Source: a virus (taxonomy: Duplodnaviria; Heunggongvirae; Uroviricota; Caudoviricetes). Taken from it: a stretch of DNA of 37,506 nt. The translations under genes and the position numbers were made by a program. Below, one piece after another: positions 1 through 19,809 of the stretch (positions within the stretch are counted from its first letter, which is position 1; the number at the start of each line of letters is the position of its first letter). Under the pieces are notes generated by a model. That model searched no databases. It saw nothing but the letters and a program-made list of their open reading frames with translations, and was not told where the DNA came from. The DNA lies in IMG/VR virus record IMGVR_UViG_2718218098_000004; one strand, 5' to 3'.

Positions 1-2157
1 TTACAGCGTTGGGAAGTTTGTTGATAATGGTACTATTGCATATTCAATTTTTGTTGGTGGCTGATTTGCCGCGCTGAATGTTGAAAGGGCCTCAAGCACA
101 ATATACCCACTTCCATTGTATCCGGCTTTAAAGCAACTTTGCAGGTTTGCAATGGAAGTATCTCCTGGGTTTAAACGCTGGTCAATAGGGGGTTTAAGGT
201 CAGTTGCGTCGGCTCTTGCTGTTGCGTCATGCGCACCAGAAGACATGATATATGTAGCATAATTATTTTTTACACCTCCAGTCACTTTTATGTGGAGAAG
301 GTAAAGAGTGCGATCAGATGTAGAACCAGTCAATATCTGTTTATCAAGAGTAATTCGTACCTTTGAGCCATCAGATAACACAGGTAAAGACTTGCTTAAC
401 ATTGCTACGCCATTAACAGTATTATCATAACCATTTCCGATATAGTTACCTGAACCTACAAAAGCTGAGTTCATTCGCCAGATATCTTCTGCCGTAAATA
501 ACCCTGACGTAATGAAGTTACCTGTCCATACGTTTCTGTTTCTTTCTGGTCTTGCATTAAGCACCATTCCAACACCCCCGGCCATGAAGTTGCCAGATAT
601 AACTGCTCCTGACATATCGGTAGTGTTGATGCATTGGAGTCTTAGGTCTTTGTTAACACCAGGATCAAGAACCATTTGCATGGTATTGCTGTTGATACTA
701 ATTCCGGCACACCACGTGCCATTAAAACCGTTGTTATTGTTGTTTAACGCCTGTGAAGCGATGAAATTAAATATCCTCTGTTCTGAAGGATTTGTAGCAC
801 CTTTATAGTAGAAAACATTTCCTGTAATACTAACAAGAGAAGTTCTAAGGAATATAGCGAAATCGTTAAGCGGGTTTTCCTCAAAATGATAGATATTGTT
901 AGAAATAACTGAACGCCCACCAAGACCGACTCTAGTACTACCATCAAATTGCAATGACATCATTTTATTAGCTGTATTGACAAATCTGTTGGAAGTTATG
1001 TTTATTTCAAGCCCCCCAGTAAATGTATCCATCTCACACGCAGACTCAGCATTCCTGTTCATAAGTAAATTTCCAGAGAAAGCGCCTCCTATCGTCGATC
1101 CTCCGATTTTTATAATATCTGCATTCGGACCGGTCTGCATAAAAACATCAAAGGTGTTATTCGTTATGTGGAACATTGACTTGCGAGGAGTTCCAATGTC
1201 GACGGATGCAGTCGTGTTGCCAAGAATCATCAGATATGGATATACCTCACCCTGTTCACCTGACATTCCTGCATCAGAGATATACTGATCTGTGTTGTCA
1301 TCAGTCTTGCAGTAGTTATTATCAACTGAAATATGTACGCTTGTTGGGTCCTGACAGTTAACCATGATGTAGCCAACACCGCAGTTAAAGCATTGCATAT
1401 CTTTTATCACCACGCGCGTTGGTAAATTCGCCAGCCCATCAGGGTAATCATTGAAAATTACCTGAGGACGCTGGGTGTGGTATGCATTTGCGGTGAACTT
1501 ACCGCCGATAATCTCTACTGATTTTGCGCCAAGCGGATGGAAAATATAATCAATGCCATTGAAGGTAAATTCTCCAGTAGAAGCATCGATAATGATGTCT
1601 CCTGGGATGGTGATGGGGGCTGTTACATCGTACACACCTGATGCTACAACTCTCGTTTTGTTTGCAACCGCATAATTTACAGCTGCCTGTAATTTTTCTG
1701 ACGCATTACTTCCGGGGAATACCTCGGGGACAACCCATTTGATGGCATCCTGTACCGTGCCATATGGCATAATCCCAACAAGACCAGCGCCGTCTTGATT
1801 AGAAAGCCTAATCTCAAATTGATCAGGGTCGTACTTCAGCACATTAGGGAAATAGAACTGCTGTGATCCATATGCATCGTACACAGACATAGAATGACCT
1901 TGCACAGTTACAAACTTGGCAATCTGTCCGTTATATACCGGATATCCAGCAGCATTAATGATGATTGGTTGCGAAACAGGAACGTGAGAGCCATCTTCGT
2001 TCTCTACATAAACCTGAATCTGGTTTTCTGGATTTACGGGGTCCGTGTCAATTTTACCGATATAAATTTTGCCATTGGCAACCGCTTTAAAAGAACGCGC
2101 CATAGTGAAAAGTTGCGAAGGCATCGATACGATCACATTGGCTGTAATGTCTGTCAT
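1..2157 (-). CDS. Tailspike protein (P22 gene 9 family): conserved N-terminal head-binding domain fused to a divergent receptor-binding body
   Basis: First ~110 aa (MTDITANV...YDPDQF) match the head-binding domain shared by P22/Sf6/HK620 tailspikes as recalled; remainder differs from the P22 and HK620 bodies; GGAG upstream of ATG at 2155-2157. Confidence 0.9.
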   Translation of the reverse strand: MTDITANVIVSMPSQLFTMARSFKAVANGKIYIGKIDTDPVNPENQIQVYVENEDGSHVPVSQPIIINAAGYPVYNGQIAKFVTVQGHSMSVYDAYGSQQFYFPNVLKYDPDQFEIRLSNQDGAGLVGIMPYGTVQDAIKWVVPEVFPGSNASEKLQAAVNYAVANKTRVVASGVYDVTAPITIPGDIIIDASTGEFTFNGIDYIFHPLGAKSVEIIGGKFTANAYHTQRPQVIFNDYPDGLANLPTRVVIKDMQCFNCGVGYIMVNCQDPTSVHISVDNNYCKTDDNTDQYISDAGMSGEQGEVYPYLMILGNTTASVDIGTPRKSMFHITNNTFDVFMQTGPNADIIKIGGSTIGGAFSGNLLMNRNAESACEMDTFTGGLEINITSNRFVNTANKMMSLQFDGSTRVGLGGRSVISNNIYHFEENPLNDFAIFLRTSLVSITGNVFYYKGATNPSEQRIFNFIASQALNNNNNGFNGTWCAGISINSNTMQMVLDPGVNKDLRLQCINTTDMSGAVISGNFMAGGVGMVLNARPERNRNVWTGNFITSGLFTAEDIWRMNSAFVGSGNYIGNGYDNTVNGVAMLSKSLPVLSDGSKVRITLDKQILTGSTSDRTLYLLHIKVTGGVKNNYATYIMSSGAHDATARADATDLKPPIDQRLNPGDTSIANLQSCFKAGYNGSGYIVLEALSTFSAANQPPTKIEYAIVPLSTNFPTL

Positions 2158-2216
2158 TTAATTTGCTCCAGATACAAGGAATCGCCGCAGCGTGGCTACG
2201 GTTGGTGTTTGTTGCA

Positions 2217-2229
2217 TACCGAAACGGTA
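2217..2229. promoter_or_regulatory. Inverted repeat TACCG-AAA-CGGTA in the mnt-tailspike intergenic region; candidate operator for the Mnt-like repressor
   Basis: 5-bp arms read directly; sits just upstream of a possible mnt promoter (TTGTTG-17-TACGAT, 2233-2261). Confidence 0.35.
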
Positions 2230-2292
2230 CGATTGTTGATTTGTACAGTAGGTTTTACGATGCCATTCCACCCAACTGGTGAGGCATCAAGG

Positions 2293-2553
2293 ATGTACAG
2301 CAAATACGACGAGGCGCAGTTTCACTTGAGACTTCCGCATGAACTTCACGCGAAAATTAAGCAGCGTGCGAAGATGAATAACAGGTCGCTGAACTCAGAG
2401 ATAATTGCAGCGATTGAAGAATCATTGGATAAACAAAGCTCTGCATCAGTTTACATTGACGATGCAGAGCGTATGGCAGAACAACAATCTGATATGGTTA
2501 AGAAAATTGTCTTTGATACGCTCAAGGAGCTATATAAAAAAGACAGCAGCTAA
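2293..2553 (+). CDS. mnt: Mnt-like ribbon-helix-helix repressor (86 aa)
   Basis: C-terminal segment NDAERMAEQQSDMVKKIVFDTLKELYKK closely resembles P22 Mnt; N-terminal beta-strand region FHLRLP is RHH-like but diverged; only the last 86 codons of track ORF 1894-2553 are used because the upstream part overlaps the tailspike gene. Confidence 0.75.
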   Translation: MYSKYDEAQFHLRLPHELHAKIKQRAKMNNRSLNSEIIAAIEESLDKQSSASVYIDDAERMAEQQSDMVKKIVFDTLKELYKKDSS

Positions 2554-2573
2554 CCATCAGTTACGGAGGATTT

Positions 2574-2651
2574 ATGCAAAGAGATATGCTGAACATTGCG
2601 TTCTACATATTTGGTTTTTGGACGTTCCTGGTGTTTGCGAAGCTATTCTGA
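2574..2651 (+). CDS. Candidate 25-aa hydrophobic peptide MQRDMLNIAFYIFGFWTFLVFAKLF directly downstream of mnt
   Basis: GGAGG 3 nt before ATG at 2574; one predicted transmembrane helix; overlaps the 3' end of the convergent ejection-protein gene by 9 nt; below the 60-aa track cutoff. Confidence 0.3.
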   Translation: MQRDMLNIAFYIFGFWTFLVFAKLF

Positions 2652-5036
2652 CAACGCATCAGACTTGGCACCCTGAGTAAGGGCGTTAATGGCCTTTTGC
2701 GCCTGCTGCATGGCTTTCTCAAACGCTGTTGATCCGCGTGGGGTGTTTGCCATTCGGAGCATTGCATTTCTGAATGGCTCGCTCTCATAGGCGCGAGTAA
2801 GAAGTCCGTAGCTTACTGCTGCGCCAGTTGTCGCCGGGTTCATTGCCGTCCCATATCCGATAATGAACGGGATGGTTTGCTGCCCTGTTGGTGTTGTTAC
2901 TGCCGCTTTTGCTGCCTGCTGAGTGGACTGAAGGTAGTTTTTCAATCCTTTCAGATAAGCGGCTTCCTGACCTTTAAATGTGATGCCAGTCTGGTTTTGC
3001 AGGATGTTAAGCTGTCGAAGGAACTGGTCAGGTGAACCACCTGATTTCTCTATCGCCTTTCCAATGATGCCATTGCGCATTTGCGCTCTTCCAACGCGAC
3101 CAACTGAGTTATACAGCGTCTTAATTTCCGATTTGTTCTTGCTGAATAGCATGTTGTTGACAACTTCCGGCGTCAGGTCGCCTTTCATGAGAACATTCTT
3201 CAGCCTGGTATTCTTTAGTTTCGCCGCTTCGTCAGCGTATACGGCATTGGCCTGCTGATATTTACGGAGAGTATCGTTGCCAAGATTCTGACCAATGGCA
3301 CCATTGATATCGTCTGTCATCGCCTTGTAAACGCGCTGAATGGCAGCATCGGAACGGTTTGGTAACACTGGTCGTTCACCCTTCACGTCCATTCTGAACT
3401 GGCTGCGCAGATCGCTTAATTGCTTCAAATCCAGATTTACCGGACCATCAGGACCAGCATTGCGAACAAGCTCATCACGATATGACTGAAGTTTTGAAAT
3501 AGTCTCGTTATCAGCAACCTTACCAAGCTTCTGCAGGTTAGATATTTCTGTATCAATCTGCTGAATTGCTCGCGCAGGCTGAATGTTTACTCCAGCCATA
3601 GCATTCTGAACCTGCTCCAGTCGATTACCGGCGGCACGACGAATTCCTGATGTTTTCGCTTTAAGGCTGTCAATAACAACAGATGGATCATACTCACCGA
3701 ATTTATCAGCAAATCTCTGCACCAACTGGCTTCTCGCTTCCTGTTGCGTTGCTCTCATCCCGCTTGTGCCAGCCAGGGGGATATTTTCCGCTGTCGTCTG
3801 CGCCATTTTCCCGACGCGGGAAGTAGGCTGTAACAGGTCTGTGGTGTGCAGAGGAACTCCTTCACGCTCTGCAAATCTGATAGCCTGCTGCGCTTCTGGC
3901 GCAATAGCACCACGAACGCCACGATAAGCAGCACCTAATCCACGTCCGGCAGCGTTAATAGCACCGCCAGCCAGCACACCAACGCCTAAATCGGTAGCGA
4001 GTGCTTCCGCATCATCTTTCATACTGTTTGCAGCAAGTGATCCAACTGCGTTTTCTGCGAGAAGGCGAGTTGCCCCCTGAGCAATTCGACCAGCAAGTGT
4101 TGGTGCCTGTGTTGCCGCTCTCTCAACGCCAGCAGGAGTGAGGTAAGGCAATGCTTCAGCAAATACCCTCCCCTCTGTCGTTTGTGGAGTCAGCGCGCCT
4201 TGCTGAAGGCCAAAGTCCTGCTCTAATCCCTGCGTTGTTACTCGTGGTGCTGGTTGATATGTACCATCGCCAATGCCGAGTTTACCGCCAGCCCAAGCCG
4301 CCGCGCTTGTTACAGCATCAGTGAGTTCAGCAGGTATGTTCGCTACGTTGATTCCTGCCTGTAGTAAGCCGCGCCCGGTTTCAGCAAGTCCATTACCAAG
4401 GTCAGACATTATTCCGCCTTGCTGCTGAACAGGTTTCGGTGCGACAGAACTTACGGGTTGAGGTGGCTGCTGACTGGCTGCCTGCTGCTCAATCTGAGCA
4501 AATGGATTATTTGGGTCTGACTGCACGCCTGATGCCGATACTTGTTCGGATGACTGTGCTTCCAGTTGTGCAAACGGGTTGTTAGGGTCTTGCTGAGGAT
4601 GTACCTTTGCAGAGGTGGCGCGCTGTTCGACTGTTGAGTCTGTCACCGGGTCACCCGCCCATTGAGCAAAGCGATCATCAACGTAACCGCGGCCTTCAGG
4701 TCCTGGCGTATATTCACCACGCTTTGCCTTCATAACGTTGCCGGGACCGTCGTGATAAGCCTGAAGAGCGTCACGCCAGTTACCAAACTGCTGGTACATC
4801 TTTGCCAGATAGCGCGCGCCAGCGTCAGCCTGATATTCGGGGTTTTGCATTTGCTCATCGGTATAACCCATATCACGCCATGTCCCAGGCATGACCTGAG
4901 TCAATCCTACAGCCCCGGCGGAGCTTACTGCGGCAGGGTTGTAAGAAGACTCCTTGGCACCCAGTGCAGTCATCAACCCTTCTGGCACACCGTAACGTGC
5001 GCCAGCCTGCTCTAACAAATCACGGTAATTAGCCAT
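2643..5036 (-). CDS. Ejection/DNA-transfer protein at the P22 gp16 position, with an N-terminal lytic transglycosylase (SLT) domain
   Basis: Position after the gp20-like gene; N-terminus carries SLT-like motifs (AKESSYNP, GLTQVMPGTW, AGARYL); internal duplicated DPNNPFAQ(L/I)E motif. Confidence 0.8.
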   Translation of the reverse strand: MANYRDLLEQAGARYGVPEGLMTALGAKESSYNPAAVSSAGAVGLTQVMPGTWRDMGYTDEQMQNPEYQADAGARYLAKMYQQFGNWRDALQAYHDGPGNVMKAKRGEYTPGPEGRGYVDDRFAQWAGDPVTDSTVEQRATSAKVHPQQDPNNPFAQLEAQSSEQVSASGVQSDPNNPFAQIEQQAASQQPPQPVSSVAPKPVQQQGGIMSDLGNGLAETGRGLLQAGINVANIPAELTDAVTSAAAWAGGKLGIGDGTYQPAPRVTTQGLEQDFGLQQGALTPQTTEGRVFAEALPYLTPAGVERAATQAPTLAGRIAQGATRLLAENAVGSLAANSMKDDAEALATDLGVGVLAGGAINAAGRGLGAAYRGVRGAIAPEAQQAIRFAEREGVPLHTTDLLQPTSRVGKMAQTTAENIPLAGTSGMRATQQEARSQLVQRFADKFGEYDPSVVIDSLKAKTSGIRRAAGNRLEQVQNAMAGVNIQPARAIQQIDTEISNLQKLGKVADNETISKLQSYRDELVRNAGPDGPVNLDLKQLSDLRSQFRMDVKGERPVLPNRSDAAIQRVYKAMTDDINGAIGQNLGNDTLRKYQQANAVYADEAAKLKNTRLKNVLMKGDLTPEVVNNMLFSKNKSEIKTLYNSVGRVGRAQMRNGIIGKAIEKSGGSPDQFLRQLNILQNQTGITFKGQEAAYLKGLKNYLQSTQQAAKAAVTTPTGQQTIPFIIGYGTAMNPATTGAAVSYGLLTRAYESEPFRNAMLRMANTPRGSTAFEKAMQQAQKAINALTQGAKSDALSE
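4490..4600. repeat. Imperfect tandem duplication inside the gp16-like gene (period about 72 nt)
   Basis: gcaaatggattatttgggtc at 4498-4517 and gcaaacgggttgttagggtc at 4570-4589, encoding the repeated DPNNPFAQ peptide. Confidence 0.5.
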
Positions 5037-6368
5037 TTACTGCCCCAAAGATGGAAGATATCCGTAGCGATTAATGAAGTCGATTGACAGCTCGGGGTGC
5101 TGCTTCAGGTAATCTATAGAAGCCTGAGGCGCTTCCACTCGCTTGATACCGTTTTGCTGAACGTACTTACCAACCGCCTCATTACGCTTCTGGTTGAGCG
5201 TGTTCAGGATGACGCCAGCGTTGCGACGAAAGGACTCCTCGCTCTGCGAGTTCTGCAGCGAACCAACAGCCTGGTCGAGCTTTTTGCCCTCGGCATCAGA
5301 AAGTGCGCCCATGCCTCGCATGGCCTGAACCGCTGTCAGGTATGCTTGTGATTTAAAGGTATCAAGTCGTGCCTGAGTGTCTGCAGCCTGTGAGCCTGGA
5401 ACGTTGGGGATTACTCCACGTAAGCCTGTAATGCTCTTAAGTGAAGGAGAACTAACGATATCGTTCAGAGTGAACATGCTGGTTGTGAGGGTGTTGATGC
5501 CGTCTTTGTAGCCATCATTTAGCGCTTGCTGCTTCTGCTGCAACTGCTGGTTGTTGGCTGCTATGCGGCTCTGTATTTCCTGGCGCTTCAGGTCGTTAGT
5601 TTCTGCTGATAGCATCCGGTCAAGGCGCTTATTTTCGTTGTTAATGCGGTTTGTTTCTGCGTCCAGATTAATGCGCTGCTGACCTAAATTCGCCTGGATA
5701 TCTTGTCCGCGCATTGTGATTGCCTGATTCCGAGCGGCGGTTTGCGAATCCAGATCCTGACCGCGCATGGTAACCTGGCGACCCTGCATTTTATCCTGTA
5801 GGTCAAAGTATTTTTCTGGCCCGAGACTGTTCATCCCCAGGTGATCGACAAATTCGCCGAACTGCCGCGGGTTCTGTTGGTACATCTGAGCGACGTCATG
5901 AGGATTAACGCCAACACGAGCTAACTCACCGGCGTTGTTTTGCAGCCATGATTGCATTGCTTCTGGAGACGATGACGCAAGGCGTGCGCCAGCCGCTAAG
6001 GTGCCGATAGAATTACGCTGCTCTTCATCGATGAATCCCATGCCTTTACGAACGGATTCAATCTGGTCTGGATATTGAGTAGCCAACTGACGCAAAGCTC
6101 CGCGATCACCAGAAGCATAAGCATTAGCGTATGCCTGCTGAAATTCTTTCTGCCGCTGAGCCTGCTTTTCCTGCTGAAACACCCCCGCAATACCTGAAAG
6201 GCCTTGCAAAGCAGTCAGCCCAACATTGTTAGCGCCTGAACGCTCAATATCATTGTTCTGCCTGATAAGCTGAAGCGTATTGCCGATGTCATTTACGCTC
6301 GGAGCGTTTGAGTTGACGCCGCCGATACCAGCCAACAATCCGCCGTTTGTTCCTTGCCAAGTAGCCAT
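5037..6368 (-). CDS. Ejection protein, P22 gp20-like
   Basis: Size (443 aa) and position between the gp7-like and gp16-like genes; N-terminus MATWQGTNGGLLAGIGG resembles P22 gp20 as recalled. Confidence 0.75.
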   Translation of the reverse strand: MATWQGTNGGLLAGIGGVNSNAPSVNDIGNTLQLIRQNNDIERSGANNVGLTALQGLSGIAGVFQQEKQAQRQKEFQQAYANAYASGDRGALRQLATQYPDQIESVRKGMGFIDEEQRNSIGTLAAGARLASSSPEAMQSWLQNNAGELARVGVNPHDVAQMYQQNPRQFGEFVDHLGMNSLGPEKYFDLQDKMQGRQVTMRGQDLDSQTAARNQAITMRGQDIQANLGQQRINLDAETNRINNENKRLDRMLSAETNDLKRQEIQSRIAANNQQLQQKQQALNDGYKDGINTLTTSMFTLNDIVSSPSLKSITGLRGVIPNVPGSQAADTQARLDTFKSQAYLTAVQAMRGMGALSDAEGKKLDQAVGSLQNSQSEESFRRNAGVILNTLNQKRNEAVGKYVQQNGIKRVEAPQASIDYLKQHPELSIDFINRYGYLPSLGQ

Positions 6369-6377
6369 GATTACCCC

Positions 6378-7070
6378 TTAAAACAACGAGCCAAGCAATC
6401 CGATACCAGCACCAATGCCAGCGCCCCAAGGCGTTGATGTTCCCAAAAGGCTGGCAAGACCTGCACCGGCAATCGCACCGGACGTTCCGCCGCTAATTGC
6501 TGTCTGAAGACTTGATGGTTTGTTGGCATTAGCAGCGGCAAGAGCTGCGCTTTGCTGTGCAATGCTGCTCATGTTGTTGGCGTACGTCTGCCCGGCGTTT
6601 GCCTGACCTTGCAGAGCACCAAGCCCAACGTTTGCCAGATTGTTGTAATTGCTCATCTGGTTTGATAACCAAGACTGACCGAGAGTCGGCGCGATCGTAG
6701 CCAGTTGATTGCTTGTGGCTGTCGAACCAAGTCCTCCCGTAGCCTCCGCAGCAGCAAGACTCTGGTAACGAGCCTGACCTGCAAGGTCTTTATACTGCTG
6801 AGAGTTGTAATACTGATTAAGTGCCTGCCCCTGACCTTCTAAACTGGAAAGGTTCTGAAGCTGGTTAACATACTGCTCCGCAAGCGGCGTGAACGGAGCA
6901 AGGTTTTTCATGATCGTCTGCCACTGCTGATTTTGCAGGTCTGCGGCATACTTCTGGGCTTCTGCTGCATACTTTGCGCTTTTATCAGAGCTACCACCTT
7001 TCCCGCCTTTTTCATGGCACCAAGGTTCCTCGCCGCGCAGTTTTCTGCCCAGCTTAAATGCATATAACAT
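6378..7070 (-). CDS. Ejection protein, P22 gp7-like
   Basis: 230 aa; N-terminus MLYAFKLGRKLRGEEP...EKGGKGGSS resembles P22 gp7; Gly/Ala-rich C-terminus. Confidence 0.75.
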   Translation of the reverse strand: MLYAFKLGRKLRGEEPWCHEKGGKGGSSDKSAKYAAEAQKYAADLQNQQWQTIMKNLAPFTPLAEQYVNQLQNLSSLEGQGQALNQYYNSQQYKDLAGQARYQSLAAAEATGGLGSTATSNQLATIAPTLGQSWLSNQMSNYNNLANVGLGALQGQANAGQTYANNMSSIAQQSAALAAANANKPSSLQTAISGGTSGAIAGAGLASLLGTSTPWGAGIGAGIGLLGSLF

Positions 7071-7072
7071 GG

Positions 7073-7531
7073 CTATCTCCCGTGATTCAGGAAGTCGATT
7101 AGTTCTTCGCGTGTGGCGCTGTAAAAAGTCACGTCATCCACGCCTTTAAAGTATTTCTTGATGGTTCCGACACGCTTAAGGCCAATCATTGCGCAGTAAA
7201 TCTGCCCGTGGCGGAATTTGCGTGCGGCGAACGATGTGACGCACTGAACGGTGGTGTTAGTCAGAATGTATCGCCAGAACGCCAGCCCGATTTCCTTGCT
7301 GAAGCCGCGAATCTCTGGCAGGTACATGGCGTGGCAATCGAATGTCAGCGGCTGAATCTCCTGATAGTAAACAATGCCGCCAAACTGACCGTGCACGTTA
7401 ACCTCAAAGTAACGGCATTCAGGCTTGTAGTCGTATCCATCACCGTTGTTGCTCCCGGCAATAATGTCAGGGTGATTTCCGACTGCTTCGATCAGGTCGA
7501 TGTTTCGCGTTGGTTTGAACTGAATCATCAC
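7073..7531 (-). CDS. P22 gp14-like morphogenesis protein
   Basis: 152 aa, syntenic between the tail-needle and gp7-like genes; ATGA overlap with the upstream gene. Confidence 0.65.
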
Positions 7532-8376
7532 TGCTCCGCGATTATCTTGATGGTTGTGGCAGTAAACGCCGCCCCATTTGACTGAATGGTTAACGTACTG
7601 CCATTTGTGGCAAGAAAGCCGTCTTTATCCACGCTGAAGAACGTAGCTAACAGGATGTTATCGGTTGTTGTAGCCGAGTTACGACTGCTTACCAGTGTGT
7701 CAGGAACAGAGCCGGAAAAGGTTAGCTGCATTGATCTGTTGGCGGTTCCGCTGGGCCACGTCCCGACGATCGACAGCTTGAAGAACAAGGTTTTGTTCTC
7801 GTTGAACACAACCATCTTGTTGTTAACGGTGTCGAAGAATGGTGCCAACGAGCCTGATGACGGCGTGAGCGTTTTCAGTAGGCTAACAAGGTTGGTCGGC
7901 GCTGTCGGGATGGTTACAGATACACCAGAGTAAACAACCTCTGACTTCTTGCGTGTGGTTGCATACTCCAGAGCATCAATGCGCGTTTCATGGTCTGAAA
8001 CCTGCGACTCCAGCGCCTGAACTCTGGTATCAAGCGACGCAATATCGCTTTCATTCTGAGTGATTCGTGTTTCATGTTCCTGAAGAGTTGATTCTGCCTG
8101 GCTGATTCGCTCCTCATGATTAACAAGCGTTGCTTCCGCAACAGAAATTCGCTGCTCATGGTCAGCGAGAATCACATCCTGCTCATCGTTCCTGACTTGT
8201 GCGTCATAAGCGCCCTGTCCGGCCTCGTTGGCCTTGTTCGCCACGTTACCAACATCAGTACCCTGTGCGATAACGTACAGCAGATATGACTGCGAGAAGA
8301 TATTGCGTGGAAGAACTGATGTATCGAGCCGCGTAGCCTGGACGATTACCGGCACATTGAGATTCGAATCAGCCAT
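7528..8376 (-). CDS. Tail needle protein (P22 gp26 family) with an extended C-terminal knob-like domain
   Basis: N-terminus [43 protein letters not shown] matches gp26; central heptad-like HE(E/T)RI repeats; 282 aa versus about 233 in P22. Confidence 0.85.
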
Positions 8377-9794
8377 TACTCAATCCTTATCTGGCAGCCA
8401 GAAAGAGTGACAGGTGACTTCGTGATAACGCGCAATTTGAAGCCAACATTTTTCCTGATGCGCCCTACTCGCTTCCATAAAACACGTTTGTCGTAAACGA
8501 ACGGTTCATTCTGCTCAATCATCTGCTCACGCCCGTAATTGATGCCGTCAGTGGTTGCAGAGAGGAACAGGCGGTCGGCGTACTGAGCTACGCCAGTGGA
8601 TGATTCCACCTCCAGATCGAAGCATCTGGCGTTATCCGCTTTGAACAACGGAGTAAACAGAAGGTGTTCCTGTTGCTTGTCGTACTGGCTGCTGATGTCG
8701 AACTGCAATTTCCCGGTCACCGATTCCAGCTTATCGCCGCACGTTATCTGATTGCCTTCGTAAATGAAGTCGATAGCGCGGTACACATCGTCATACAGGC
8801 CTGTTTTCAACACACACCATTGCGGACCATTAGAGCTTGAAGATGCATCGTATACGAGGACATGGCGCGGAAGATGGATAATCAGCAACTCATGCGCATC
8901 AAAGCGCAGCGATTCCATCACACCATCAGCCAGTTCATCAGCAGTGTAGGAGCGTAGTATTTTCTCAATGCTCGCGCTGGCGATTGGTGATACCTGACCG
9001 GAGCCGATGATGTATACAGACGGCGCACCCGTTGCCGGATTGCTGATGAACGCATACGAATCAGCAAACGGCGTTTTGCAGTAAGTCCCGGCAATGCCTT
9101 TCTGCACCATTAACGATGGCTGGGCGACATACAAAGCGGCACCTACAGTGGTTGCGCCAGTCAGGGAGAAATATTCAATCGTCGATGAACCAAAGCAGAC
9201 GATGAAGTCTCGCCATGTGCCGATGCCGATGATTCCGTCAGGCTGAGACTCGGCACGATATTGTGCGCTGTAGCGGTCAGGGTGCGATTCGTCTTCGAGG
9301 TCAGTGATAAACCATGAATCAGTTCCGTCTTTTGACCACGCATAACGCCCACGTAAGCGCGTAATGTCACGAACAGAACCTAGCTCATACTGCGTAAATC
9401 CACTGTCTGTAGGCCAGTTTGAGACGGTTTTAACCGTGCCATCATAGCGATACTCGACCAGTTGACCATTAACGCCTACCGCCTGTGATGTCCGACCATG
9501 CGCCATTGATACACGACCACTTCCGGCGACGTCACCGACTTCGCTTTCGCCTTTGTAGAGCTTGCCGCCACACACGCGATAAACAGCACTCTGCGCCATG
9601 TTGTACTCGACGCCTCGAGATATACCGTTCACATCAGAACGTTTGGCAATGCCCGGGAATGAGCGAAGATATCCGCTGCTGTTCAGGATTTCTTTGGGTG
9701 TAGCCAACATATTCACTGGCAGATAGTCGATATAGTCGGCGTTTCGAAAGTCTTTGCCGACACCTTTCATAAGCGGAAGTTGCTGAATCGGCAT
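8376..9794 (-). CDS. Tail accessory / head completion protein, P22 gp10-like
   Basis: 472 aa, same length class and position as P22 gp10. Confidence 0.85.
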
Positions 9795-10294
9795 TATTCG
9801 CTCCCGTTATCGCAAGGTTCCTTTCGGTGGAAGTAATTCCAACCATTCCACTTCGCCAACTGGTTACCACTACCAACAGGCATACGGTTTGGATAACCGG
9901 ACTTACATTTAGCGGCTTTTGCTCTGTCCATTGCAGACAGTTTGACGAGTCGCTCTTTCCCGTATCTGGCAGTGGTTATAAGTTTTGCAGACGCTTCCAG
10001 CGCATAATCCGGAGCAATGCGGCAGGCAAGGTTGAAAATGACGGCATTGATAGCGTTATTTGATAAGCCGTGTTCATCGCCAGGATCTGGAGCGACATCT
10101 GCATCAGCGAAAATGTAGCCAACGTTGATACCTGGTGACTCATCACCGCCAAGCCATTCAGCCATCATCATTTCAAGGTCATTGACGCCATCTTCCATGG
10201 ACTGCGGTTCGACATCGGTTAACGTGGCATTTGATGCCACACCGAGCTTACGTAATGCTGCAAGAACTAAATCACCCTTCGTTGTCAGGTTCAT
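9794..10294 (-). CDS. Tail accessory protein, P22 gp4-like (167 aa)
   Basis: [31 protein letters not shown] resembles P22 gp4; start moved to the internal ATG at 10292-10294 (MNLTTKGDL) to match gp4 length; the track ORF's upstream MQSQSQ codons belong to the hexanucleotide repeat in another gene's frame. Confidence 0.85.
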
Positions 10295-18666: not shown

Positions 18667-19134
18667 TCATTTCAGGCACTGCGTGTTGATGTATTCCTGC
18701 AGCGCTCTCAGTGATGTTTGGTCGCTGATGATTCCGGATCTGATACTGAGAACGTTTCGTCCAGCAACTGGAGAGAGTTCGACGGTGGCATCATTGCCCA
18801 TGCCGGAGGTGCGGGAGGTTTCGGCTGAGGATGGCACAGGGCATTTTCCTTTGACGAGCACCCTGCCACCATTATCAAGCTTGCGCCGAAGAGCATCATT
18901 TTCAGCTTTCGCATCAGCTAACTCCTTCGTGTATTTAGCATCGAGTGCATCAGCAGCACGCTGGCGTTGCTGCATGTCAGTAATGGTGGCGGTCGCCTGC
19001 TTCAGCTCACTGACTTTTTTATCACGCTGTTCTTTGTAGGCGATGGCGTTATCACGGTAATGATTAACAGCCCATGACAGGCAGACGATGATGCAGATAA
19101 CCAGAGCGGAGATAATCGCGGTTACTCTGCTCAT
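18667..19134 (-). CDS. Rz: Rz inner-membrane spanin (i-spanin)
   Basis: From [31 protein letters not shown] the sequence closely resembles lambda Rz; ATGA overlap with the endolysin stop. Confidence 0.9.
18708..18914 (-). CDS. Rz1: Rz1 outer-membrane lipoprotein spanin (o-spanin), embedded in the +1 frame of Rz
   Basis: MRKLKMML...VAGCSS lipobox and proline-rich PPAPPAW segment, as in lambda Rz1. Confidence 0.8.
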
Positions 19135-19634
19135 TGCTGCCCCCACAAACAGACTTCACGCTCAATCTCGCGGCGAGTCATCAGCCCTTTCCATTGCTTA
19201 CCGCCAGCGTATGTCCAGCGACGTAGCTGATCACATGCGCCTTTGATATCGCCCTGGTTTATTTTGCGAAGAAGCGTCGATGTTCTGAAATTGCCAGCAC
19301 CCACGTTGTAAACGAATGAGTAAAGAGCGCCGCGCATTGTTTCCGGTATATCGACTTTGATGTACGGGTTAATTTGTCTGGCGACCGTGGCAAGGTCTTT
19401 ATTCAGGAGGGCTTTGCATTCTGCTTCGGTATACGTTTTACCGAGCATAATGTCTTTTCCGGTATGCCCGTAACATACAGTCCATACACCAACGATATCT
19501 TTATATGGTATGTAGCTGACGCCTTCTAGGCCATCGTTACCACTTGGGCCAGTGATTAACACAGATGCTATAGCAATAGCCCCGCCACTTATCGCCGCTA
19601 TTACGCTATTTCGTAGTGCCGGTGACATTGCCAT
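19131..19634 (-). CDS. SAR endolysin (GH24 lysozyme with signal-anchor-release domain), phage 21 R-like
   Basis: Gly/Ala-rich N-terminal SAR segment followed by the E-D-T catalytic region [23 protein letters not shown]; resembles phage 21 R as recalled. Confidence 0.9.
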
Positions 19635-19809
19635 TCAATCTGTCCTCGCGCTCTTTGCGCTTGTAGTACCAGTTGATGCCAAATGTGCCGACAGTACAAA
19701 GAATACCAATGATGACAGCCCAGTCATTCAGGGAGAGAATGCCACCCATCGCAGTCAGTCCTCCGAAGCTGTAACTGAACCATTCTCTGATTTTGTCCAT
19801 ACGGTACAT
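19606..19809 (-). CDS. Class II holin (pinholin-like) with dual-start motif
   Basis: 67 aa, two predicted TMDs, N-terminal M-Y-R-M-D-K analogous to the Met1/Met4 dual start of phage 21 S; 3' end overlaps the endolysin start. Confidence 0.8.

Follow-up and report, generated by a model that had tools for sequence, protein, structure and literature searches.

This locus raises the question of whether a P22-like phage carries a peptidoglycan-cutting enzyme on one of its ejection proteins and, if so, what the remainder of that protein contributes. The window, meaning the whole stretch of DNA analysed, comprises 37,506 nucleotides of IMG/VR record IMGVR_UViG_2718218098_000004 and derives from a P22-like phage (Lederbergvirus). 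The gene under study occupies positions 2643..5036 on the minus strand and encodes 797 amino acids plus a stop codon. Its placement at the gp16 position of the virion operon, as an ejection (DNA transfer) protein gene, follows from the open reading frame list, from synteny and from a profile match to PHROG 770, 'DNA transfer protein', covering residues 108-797 with an E-value of 1.4e-239. The operon runs in the order gp10, gp26, gp14, gp7, gp20, the 797-residue gene and the tailspike, and the succession gp7-gp20-gp16 upstream of the tailspike is that of the P22 gp16 / Sf6 gp13 family. As originally predicted, the product is the largest of three ejection proteins, gp7 (6378-7070) having 230 residues and the gp20 homologue (5037..6368, minus strand; Pfam Inj_translocase, E 1.1e-67) having 443. 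In the junction sequence the gp20 stop codon is followed immediately, and in frame, by the gp16 ATG. The protein has three parts, namely an SLT domain, a linker rich in glutamine, proline and serine, and a body of the Sf6 gp13 / P22 gp16 type.

The SLT domain spans residues 1-127 (4656..5036, minus strand), as delimited by Pfam PF01464, alignment with Slt70, the AlphaFold model and Foldseek. The Pfam SLT profile matches residues 7-110 with 88.6 bits against a cut-off of 21.3 (E 2.8e-25). The strings that had suggested the domain, AKESSYNP, GLTQVMPGTW and AGARYL, lie at residues 27-34, 44-53 and 72-77. In the alignments, Glu29-Ser30 stands opposite Glu478-Ser479 of Slt70 and Glu37-Ser38 of T7 gp16, making Glu29 (GAG codon at 4950..4952, minus strand) the predicted catalytic residue, with Ser30 next to it. 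The stretch G44-L-T-Q47 falls opposite GLMQ of Slt70, and A93-Y-H-D-G97 opposite AYNAG, with histidine in place of the Slt70 asparagine in this third motif, a substitution kept throughout the phage clade. Across an alignment of 95 homologues, E29, S30, G44, Q47, Y94 and G97 are invariant, which settles the proposed check on the catalytic glutamate in its favour. The AlphaFold model is confident over the domain, with a block-mean pLDDT of at least 89 in each 10-residue block of residues 1-110, 81 at 111-120 and 71 at 121-130. Foldseek matches it with probability 1.0 to LtgA, Slt70 and MltE (5mpq, 1qte, 2y8p), as well as to the T7 gp16 structures 7eyb_I, 7k5c_B and 9jyy_I, and the model has the goose-lysozyme-like all-alpha fold. 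Profile, alignment and model together identify residues 1-127 as a family-1 lytic transglycosylase domain with its active-site motifs intact and with predicted catalytic activity, bearing out the SLT assignment. The fold and the motifs E-S, GLxQ and AYxxG are shared with E. coli Slt70 and the other family-1 (GH23) enzymes. Unlike Slt70, the phage protein lacks a superhelical U/L domain, a signal peptide and a lipobox, and its SLT domain would arrive in the periplasm from the cell exterior, by way of the phage tail.

The body, residues 208-797 (2646..4415, minus strand), is 97% identical to residues 76-665 of Sf6 gp13 and 78% identical to residues 62-655 of BTP1 gp16, which confirms the gp16-position assignment. 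It has no match in Pfam or NCBIfam, and none among PDB sequences, T7 gp16 structures included, at E-values up to 0.01. Gene position and PHROG 770 membership are likewise common to Sf6 gp13 and P22/BTP1 gp16. These proteins differ from the present one in having no SLT domain, their N-terminal modules being of 75 residues (MAKAWKDV...) or of 61 residues (MKVTANGKTFTF... plus an (EQQ)n run). The gene is mosaic, with the junction to the Sf6-type body at the end of the linker. The segment absent from Sf6 and common to Sf101 extends over 4424..5832 and comprises the part of gp20 from about residue 179 onwards together with gp16 residues 1-204, its limits having been set by blastn of window positions 1-10000 against Sf6, Sf101, IME10, VSe13 and BTP1. 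The 'transglycosylase' gp13 of Sf101 (AII27837.1) is 100% identical over the N-terminal 206 residues; Sf101-type proteins differ in carrying this same module on another body (911 aa). Over its full length the gene shares 97% DNA identity with IME10, whose records leave it unannotated. Together with Sf101 and IME10, the closest known relatives are Huey, Dewey, APC_JM3.2 and E. coli prophage proteins that bear the name 'lytic transglycosylase domain-containing protein'. An SLT domain joined to the body also occurs at the same gene position in Skarprettervirus, Murrayvirus and Kosakonia phages. The domain is present in every member examined of the neighbouring genera, and within Lederbergvirus in a minority of phages and prophages. 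The gp13 of VSe13, annotated as 'lytic transglycosylase domain-containing protein', was considered as the bearer of a different SLT domain and rejected, since it has none and its annotated name was propagated from the shared body.

A close functional parallel is T7 gp16 (internal virion protein D), likewise the largest ejection protein of its phage, with an SLT domain at the N-terminus and a gene that immediately follows the one for the periplasmic-tunnel protein. The two proteins share 28% identity over 130 residues (BLASTP, E 2e-10), with E37 of T7 aligned on E29, and they share the structural match and an extended linker after the SLT domain. They differ in length (1318 against 797 residues) and in the body, for which no relationship is detectable, the match of the query to PHROG 342 being confined to residues 3-189. 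T7 gp16 mutants are impaired at 20 C and on stationary-phase cells. By analogy, the protein would work like the N-terminal part of T7 gp16 (gp16-N), yet it lies outside the T7 gp16 family.

Between domain and body lies the linker, residues 128-207 (4416..4655, minus strand), defined by composition (20% Gln, 14% Pro, 12.5% Ser) and by a pLDDT of 50-70, with three short helices predicted by AlphaFold. It holds the peptide DPNNPFAQ exactly twice, at residues 150-157 (4589-4566) and 174-181 (4517-4494), with a period of 72 nt. The first extended copy, DPNNPFAQLE, covers residues 150-159 (4560..4589, minus strand), with a predicted helix starting at P154; the second, DPNNPFAQIE, covers residues 174-183 (4488..4517, minus strand), with a predicted helix at 178-187. 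By manual count, 13 of 24 residues are common to the two 24-residue units. In alignment A1, which spans genera, N153, F155 and Q157 do not vary. Between orthologue pairs, the motif shows 212 synonymous and 36 non-synonymous codon differences, and the 14-codon spacer 43 synonymous and 191 non-synonymous, so that, as judged from codon counts, the motif pair is under purifying selection at the peptide level. When the 48-residue region holding the motifs was compared by tblastn with 50,697 phage records, only the family of the protein itself matched.

The original prediction had described an imperfect tandem duplication at about 4490-4600 and a likely site of length variation. The position and the two copies were right, while the duplication exists at the peptide level only, neither Tandem Repeats Finder (minimum score 30) nor a seed-9 direct-repeat search over the gene having found a DNA-level repeat at the motif. 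Copy number was surveyed in 5426 complete E. coli genomes, 70 of which carry an SLT-bearing gene of the Lederbergvirus type, and in 10 phage records. Two copies at fixed spacing were found in 67 of the 70 genomes, and the 10 phage records show this arrangement too, as do relatives from IMG/VR with as little as 59% identity. Of the three E. coli exceptions, the two inspected (H124 and H125), short matches taken up as candidate copy-number variants, proved to be decayed, truncated prophage remnants beside pseudogenes. The intact members of the family that were examined, whose identity ranges from 100% to 59%, all have two copies at 24-residue spacing, and the proposed length variation at the repeat is refuted. 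A slippage-prone duplication whose copy number differs between strains and tunes linker length might be suspected from the adjacency of the units within a low-complexity linker, and from the neighbouring Gln/Pro stretch just downstream of the repeat, which varies by 1-2 residues in more distant relatives. Against it stand the fixed spacing and the DNA itself, in which the 10-codon motif copies are identical at only 21 of 30 nt, with seven of the eight differing codons synonymous, and the wider repeat unit at 35 of 66 nt. Because the copies have diverged at synonymous sites, they offer no substrate for slippage, and this explanation retains almost no probability, being already refuted at the available sampling depth. 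The repeat is instead read as an old duplication, retained by selection on the peptide rather than maintained as a mutable tract. Wholesale exchange of the N-terminal module is another source of length change.

Taken as a whole, the locus is best explained, with good confidence, as encoding a three-part ejection protein whose SLT domain cuts murein at entry. Together with gp7 and gp20, the protein would be carried in the head and leave by the tail ahead of the DNA. That the SLT activity is delivered along with the ejected proteins, as had been suggested, is a sound expectation from T7 gp16. In the periplasm the SLT domain may cut glycan strands locally, allowing a gp20/gp16 conduit to cross the murein layer, the job performed by the N-terminal domain of T7 gp16, which has a role in crossing highly cross-linked murein (PMC8954989; PMC5380687). 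The linker would act as a flexible tether on which a short capped helix, DPNN-PFAQ(L/I)E, occurs twice, and residues 208-797 may form the inner end of the channel that carries the DNA across the envelope. P22, BTP1, Sf6 and VSe13, like most P22-like phages, have no SLT domain, so the domain is not essential to the channel. In P22, gp4 is the only virion-associated muralytic protein reported (PMC5380687). It resembles the present protein in providing a muralytic function within a P22-type virion, and differs in being a neck/adaptor protein that is not ejected and has no SLT domain.

Two other roles for the SLT domain were weighed against cutting at entry. The domain might be mainly structural, forming tunnel 'wings' as in the T7 structure or serving as a packaging handle, with catalysis dispensable or lost. 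The existence of many P22-like phages that manage without it is compatible with such a role, as is the finding that the T7 transglycosylase is needed only with highly cross-linked murein (PMC8954989). The active-site motifs, however, are all intact and invariant over wide divergence, which is unexpected for a mere scaffold, and a purely structural domain is accordingly judged unlikely. An auxiliary lysis enzyme acting at the end of infection has a precedent in the SLT domains of some phage endolysins (PHROG 669 match). Here the domain forms part of a virion ejection protein encoded in the structural operon, the protein has no signal sequence, and the phage has a complete lysis cassette of its own, with holin, GH24 lysozyme and Rz at 18667-19809, so a part in late lysis is highly improbable. 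Cutting at entry remains the preferred role.

The fusion of an SLT domain to an ejection protein is not new, being annotated publicly and its principle having been set by T7 gp16. NCBI lists the identical 797-residue protein under APL02658.1 and further accessions, with the name 'lytic transglycosylase domain-containing protein', and its cluster at 90% identity has 1295 members. A 2022 review nevertheless states that P22-like phages lack such muralytic activity, and the SLT domain described here corrects that statement in the specialist literature. The literature searched gave no account of an SLT domain in a P22-like gp16, although Casjens & Thuman-Commike 2011 might mention one. The present phage and Sf6, with bodies 97% identical and with and without the SLT domain, form a natural pair for asking when virion-borne muralytic activity pays.

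A further proposal, which supplements the entry explanation rather than replacing it, concerns the paired motif. The twin DPNNPFAQ(L/I)E helices could tentatively be docking sites by which the gp16 N-terminal module attaches to gp20, through the C-terminal part or the tail of the latter, either in the assembled periplasmic conduit or inside the capsid. If the helices were a docking element, the gp20 C-terminus and the gp16 N-terminus should co-evolve and be exchanged as one cassette. Consistent with this, the single block that differs from Sf6 is the one joining gp20 from about residue 179 to gp16 residues 1-204, and the motif peptide is conserved while the spacer is free to change. Other genera have the N-x-F-x-Q core after the SLT domain, in two copies of which the second lies at the extreme N-terminus. 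The gp20 C-terminal tail, here DFINRYGYLPSLGQ (5040..5081, minus strand), tracks the type of gp16 N-terminal module at all loci examined. Tails of the YG(Y/F)LP type pair with gp16 N-x-F-x-Q motifs, even across genera, NWRKN pairs with GPWxxYQ, and GIQFTVE pairs with the P22-type module. SNFSSLWGD pairs with the Sf6-type module at 60 of 60 loci, although the gp20 middles are unrelated. In T7, gp15 is bound by the stretch of gp16 that immediately follows the SLT domain, residues 157-228 (PMC8954989). This stretch holds KPFAKDF at 204-210, with LETFGG just before, at 154-159.

Several observations weaken the docking proposal. Linkage by itself could give the pattern, since the parts inherited together lie side by side, and Gln-rich linkers may be the sole permissive points for recombination. 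The likeness to the T7 sequence was judged by eye only, and the motif helices have low confidence in the AlphaFold model (pLDDT 50-60). In P22-like phages the paired helices may, as a minority possibility, correspond to the 'molecular tape' of T7 gp16 and act as a two-site clamp on the gp20 C-terminal tail or domain. Equally speculative is a broader form of the motif, aromatic-x-x-hydrophobic, occurring twice near the N-terminus of gp16-type proteins. Just as provisionally, the gp20 C-terminal tail and the gp16 N-terminal module may constitute a co-evolving interface cassette, swapped at Gln-rich linkers in both proteins. If the proposal were true, sequence could show where the periplasmic tunnel is attached to the inner-membrane component in P22-like, Skarpretter-like and Murrayvirus phages. 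A specific and cheaply testable idea on how ejection proteins dock comes from the conserved motif pair and from the fact that it is inherited together with the gp20 tail.

The 797-aa protein encoded at the gp16 position (2643-5036, minus strand) begins with an SLT domain that is genuine and, judged from sequence and predicted fold, looks active. Pfam places the domain at residues 7-110 with 88.6 bits against a cut-off of 21.3 (E 2.8e-25), and the best sequence match among solved structures is E. coli Slt70, whose catalytic Glu478-Ser479 aligns with Glu29-Ser30, its GLMQIMPGT with GLTQVMPGT, and its AYNAGPG with AYHDGPG. In an alignment with 94 homologues at 30-46% identity, residues E29, S30, A42, G44, Q47, Y94, and G97 are invariant. 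The AlphaFold model built on this alignment exhibits block-mean pLDDT values of at least 89 for residues 1-110 and of 81 for residues 111-120. Foldseek against the PDB returned LtgA, Slt70, MltE, MltC, and MltF, all with probability 1.0, and T7 gp16 chains 7eyb_I, 7k5c_B, and 9jyy_I at ranks 38, 43, and 50 with the same probability. BLASTP aligned the N-terminus of T7 gp16 (28% identity over 130 residues, E 2e-10), placing T7 Glu37, which Moak and Molineux reportedly mutated, on Glu29. The domain search, the Slt70 and T7 gp16 alignments, the model, and the structural matches all support the SLT domain of the original prediction, with Glu29 conserved rather than lost.

The window holds the genome of a temperate, P22-like phage, whose minus-strand virion operon comprises the gp10 homologue (8376-9794), a tail needle of 282 aa with an Sf6-type knob, PF16532 (7528-8376), gp14 (7073-7531), gp7 (6378-7070), gp20 (5037-6368), the gp16-position gene, and, last in operon order, the tailspike (1-2157). 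Of the three ejection-protein genes, the 797-aa ORF is the longest, and it occupies the position of P22 gene 16 and Sf6 gene 13. Its ATG (5036), in frame with gp20, comes immediately after that gene's stop codon, and a GGGG Shine-Dalgarno sequence lies within the final codons of gp20. A plus-strand Mnt-type repressor gene (2293-2553, Pfam Arc and Repressor_Mnt) separates the gp16-position gene from the tailspike, and this 486-nt gap has no room for an arc or ant gene.

PHROG 770, 'DNA transfer protein', spans residues 108-797. Residues 208-797 are 97% identical to residues 76-665 of Sf6 gp13 and 78% identical to residues 62-655 of BTP1 gp16; Pfam finds no SLT domain in Sf6 gp13 or VSe13 gp13. 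For residues 1-206 the match is the N-terminus of the Sf101 'transglycosylase' (100% identity), a protein with a different and longer body (911 aa). At the DNA level, the difference from Sf6 is a single block (4424-5832), covering gp16 residues 1-204 and the remainder of gp20 from about residue 179 onward, and the Sf101 match (97.9% identity over 4419-7528) runs across it. IME10 shows 97% identity over the entire gp16-position gene, to an unannotated stretch; the 797-aa orthologue is unannotated in all three IME10 records (L001:5001-7394; NC_019501 31064-33457). The IME10 match is interrupted at 7530-8174, a further mosaic junction in the tail needle region, and the IME10 tail needle is shorter (702 nt) although the phage is otherwise very similar.

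Judged by its gene position, its homologues, and analogy, the protein would travel inside the head and leave the virion together with gp7 and gp20, ahead of the DNA, after which the SLT domain would open murein locally, allowing the conduit to pass. By analogy, such a role at entry is the most likely one, T7 gp16-N having been described in the same local murein opening, which matters with highly cross-linked murein (PMC8954989; PMC5380687). A contribution of the domain to lysis is unlikely, as the phage has a separate and complete lysis cassette (18667-19809, minus strand) with an HP1-family holin, a GH24 lysozyme, and Rz with an embedded Rz1-like ORF. The GH24 lysozyme has a hydrophobic N-terminal segment, possibly of the signal-anchor-release type. 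The entry mechanism would be the ordinary one of T7, and the SLT domain is accessory, since many P22-like phages are without it.

The linker (20% Gln, 14% Pro, and 12.5% Ser) holds DPNNPFAQLE (residues 150-159, window 4560-4589) and DPNNPFAQIE (residues 174-183, window 4488-4517) at a spacing of 24 residues. The predicted duplication is therefore right at the protein level, as a peptide repeat, whereas no DNA-level repeat is detectable at the motif pair: 21 nt are identical between the two 30-nt copies, and 7 of 8 differing codons are synonymous. Codon changes within the motifs, counted over eight diverged orthologues, are 212 synonymous versus 36 non-synonymous, whereas those in the 14-codon spacer, which is constant in length, are 43 versus 191. 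The pair is an old duplication kept by peptide-level selection.

Copy number and spacing were examined in E. coli complete genomes, phage records, and IMG/VR relatives, and the repeat proved invariant across homologues in all three collections, refuting the proposal that it is a likely site of length variation. Among 70 module-carrying E. coli genomes, 67 match over at least 80% of a 700-nt query, each match listed being one unbroken piece with an identity of at least 99%. Of the three exceptions, two were inspected, and both are decayed prophage remnants rather than copy-number variants. The 10 module-bearing phage records are all 99.5-100% identical over the covered part, and intact IMG/VR relatives of the family, whose identity ranges between 100% and 59%, all carry two copies at equal spacing. 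Just downstream, a Gln/Pro run does differ in length by 1-2 residues; some relatives have an insertion of about 95 residues after the N-terminal module, and entire N-terminal modules are also exchanged.

In a cross-genus alignment, N153, F155, and Q157 of the first copy are invariant. Relatives in other genera carry GN(V/F)FDQFG(D/E) at this place and a second copy, MAN(V/I/F)FDQFDQ, at the extreme N-terminus, while other lineages have the paired variants NFAATFG and NKFASQFG, NMFAKY and NMFGQY, or GPWEKYQ and GPWSNYQ. The conserved feature is accordingly a pair of short aromatic-x-x-hydrophobic motifs close to the N-terminus rather than their placement relative to SLT. Over about 120 distinct contigs (loci L001-L169, some contigs represented twice), the last residues of gp20 (window 5040-5081, minus strand) follow the type of gp16 N-terminal module. 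The tail YG(Y/F)LP pairs with the SLT plus N-x-F-x-Q type, even across genera whose gp20 C-terminal halves share only 23-30% identity; NWRKN pairs with the GPWxxYQ type, GIQFTVE with the P22 type, and SNFSSLWGD with the Sf6 type at 60 of 60 loci, despite at least three unrelated gp20 middles. Recombination junctions fall in Gln-rich stretches of both gp20 and gp16, not at the gene boundary. In T7 gp16, residues 157-228, directly after the SLT domain, form a 'molecular tape' binding gp15 (PMC8954989). The Phe-rich strings LETFGG (154-159, just before the tape), KPFAKDF (204-210, inside it), and STFFGF (225-230) of T7 (L089:96-845, residues 154-230) resemble, by eye only, NPFAQL, NVFDQFG, and NKFASQFG of SLT-type gp16 proteins. 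These patterns hint that the motif pair might dock gp16 onto gp20, a tentative reading that we consider rather improbable; linkage alone could produce the pairing of gp20 tails with gp16 modules, because the parts inherited together are neighbours in the DNA.

SLT-bearing gp16 is already known at the annotation level, since NCBI lists the exact sequence (APL02658.1 and others) under the name 'lytic transglycosylase domain-containing protein', within a 90%-identity cluster of 1295 members, the Sf101 copy is annotated 'transglycosylase', and SLT-plus-body proteins occupy this gene position in Skarprettervirus, Murrayvirus, and Kosakonia phages. No discussion of the domain in P22-like gp16 was found in the literature searched, and a review statement that P22-like phages lack its activity is true of P22, Sf6, HK620, and CUS-3, not of the whole group. 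What this adds is a modest correction of the review literature, together with one docking hypothesis that can be tested. The NCBI name is also given to VSe13 gp13 (L007:2722-4719, 665 aa) and to the gp16 or gp16-fragment proteins P0039 (392 aa) and P0043 (241 aa), both from Cronobacter and starting with an Sf6-type module, and P0132, of Sf6-type length (665 aa). The SLT domain that it implies for VSe13 gp13 was rejected on the Pfam result, and on all four the name appears to have been propagated from the shared body.

The extra domain of about 95 residues (..GNIDIHNRPVVKN.DGSISTVRSMSTNIDGREVLIPTV..HLGIF..) is found in SLT-type (886 aa) and Sf6-type (759 aa) gp16 alike, at residues ~184-280 in locus L056 and ~55-150 in loci L113, L119, and L169. 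Behind its first 30 residues, P22/BTP1-type gp16 has a genuine low-complexity run, (EQQ)n (L090:1318-1527, BTP1), and this run rather than the DPNNPFAQ pair is the kind of place where length would be expected to vary; BTP1 gp16 has 655 aa and P22 gp16 609 aa (PMC8954989).
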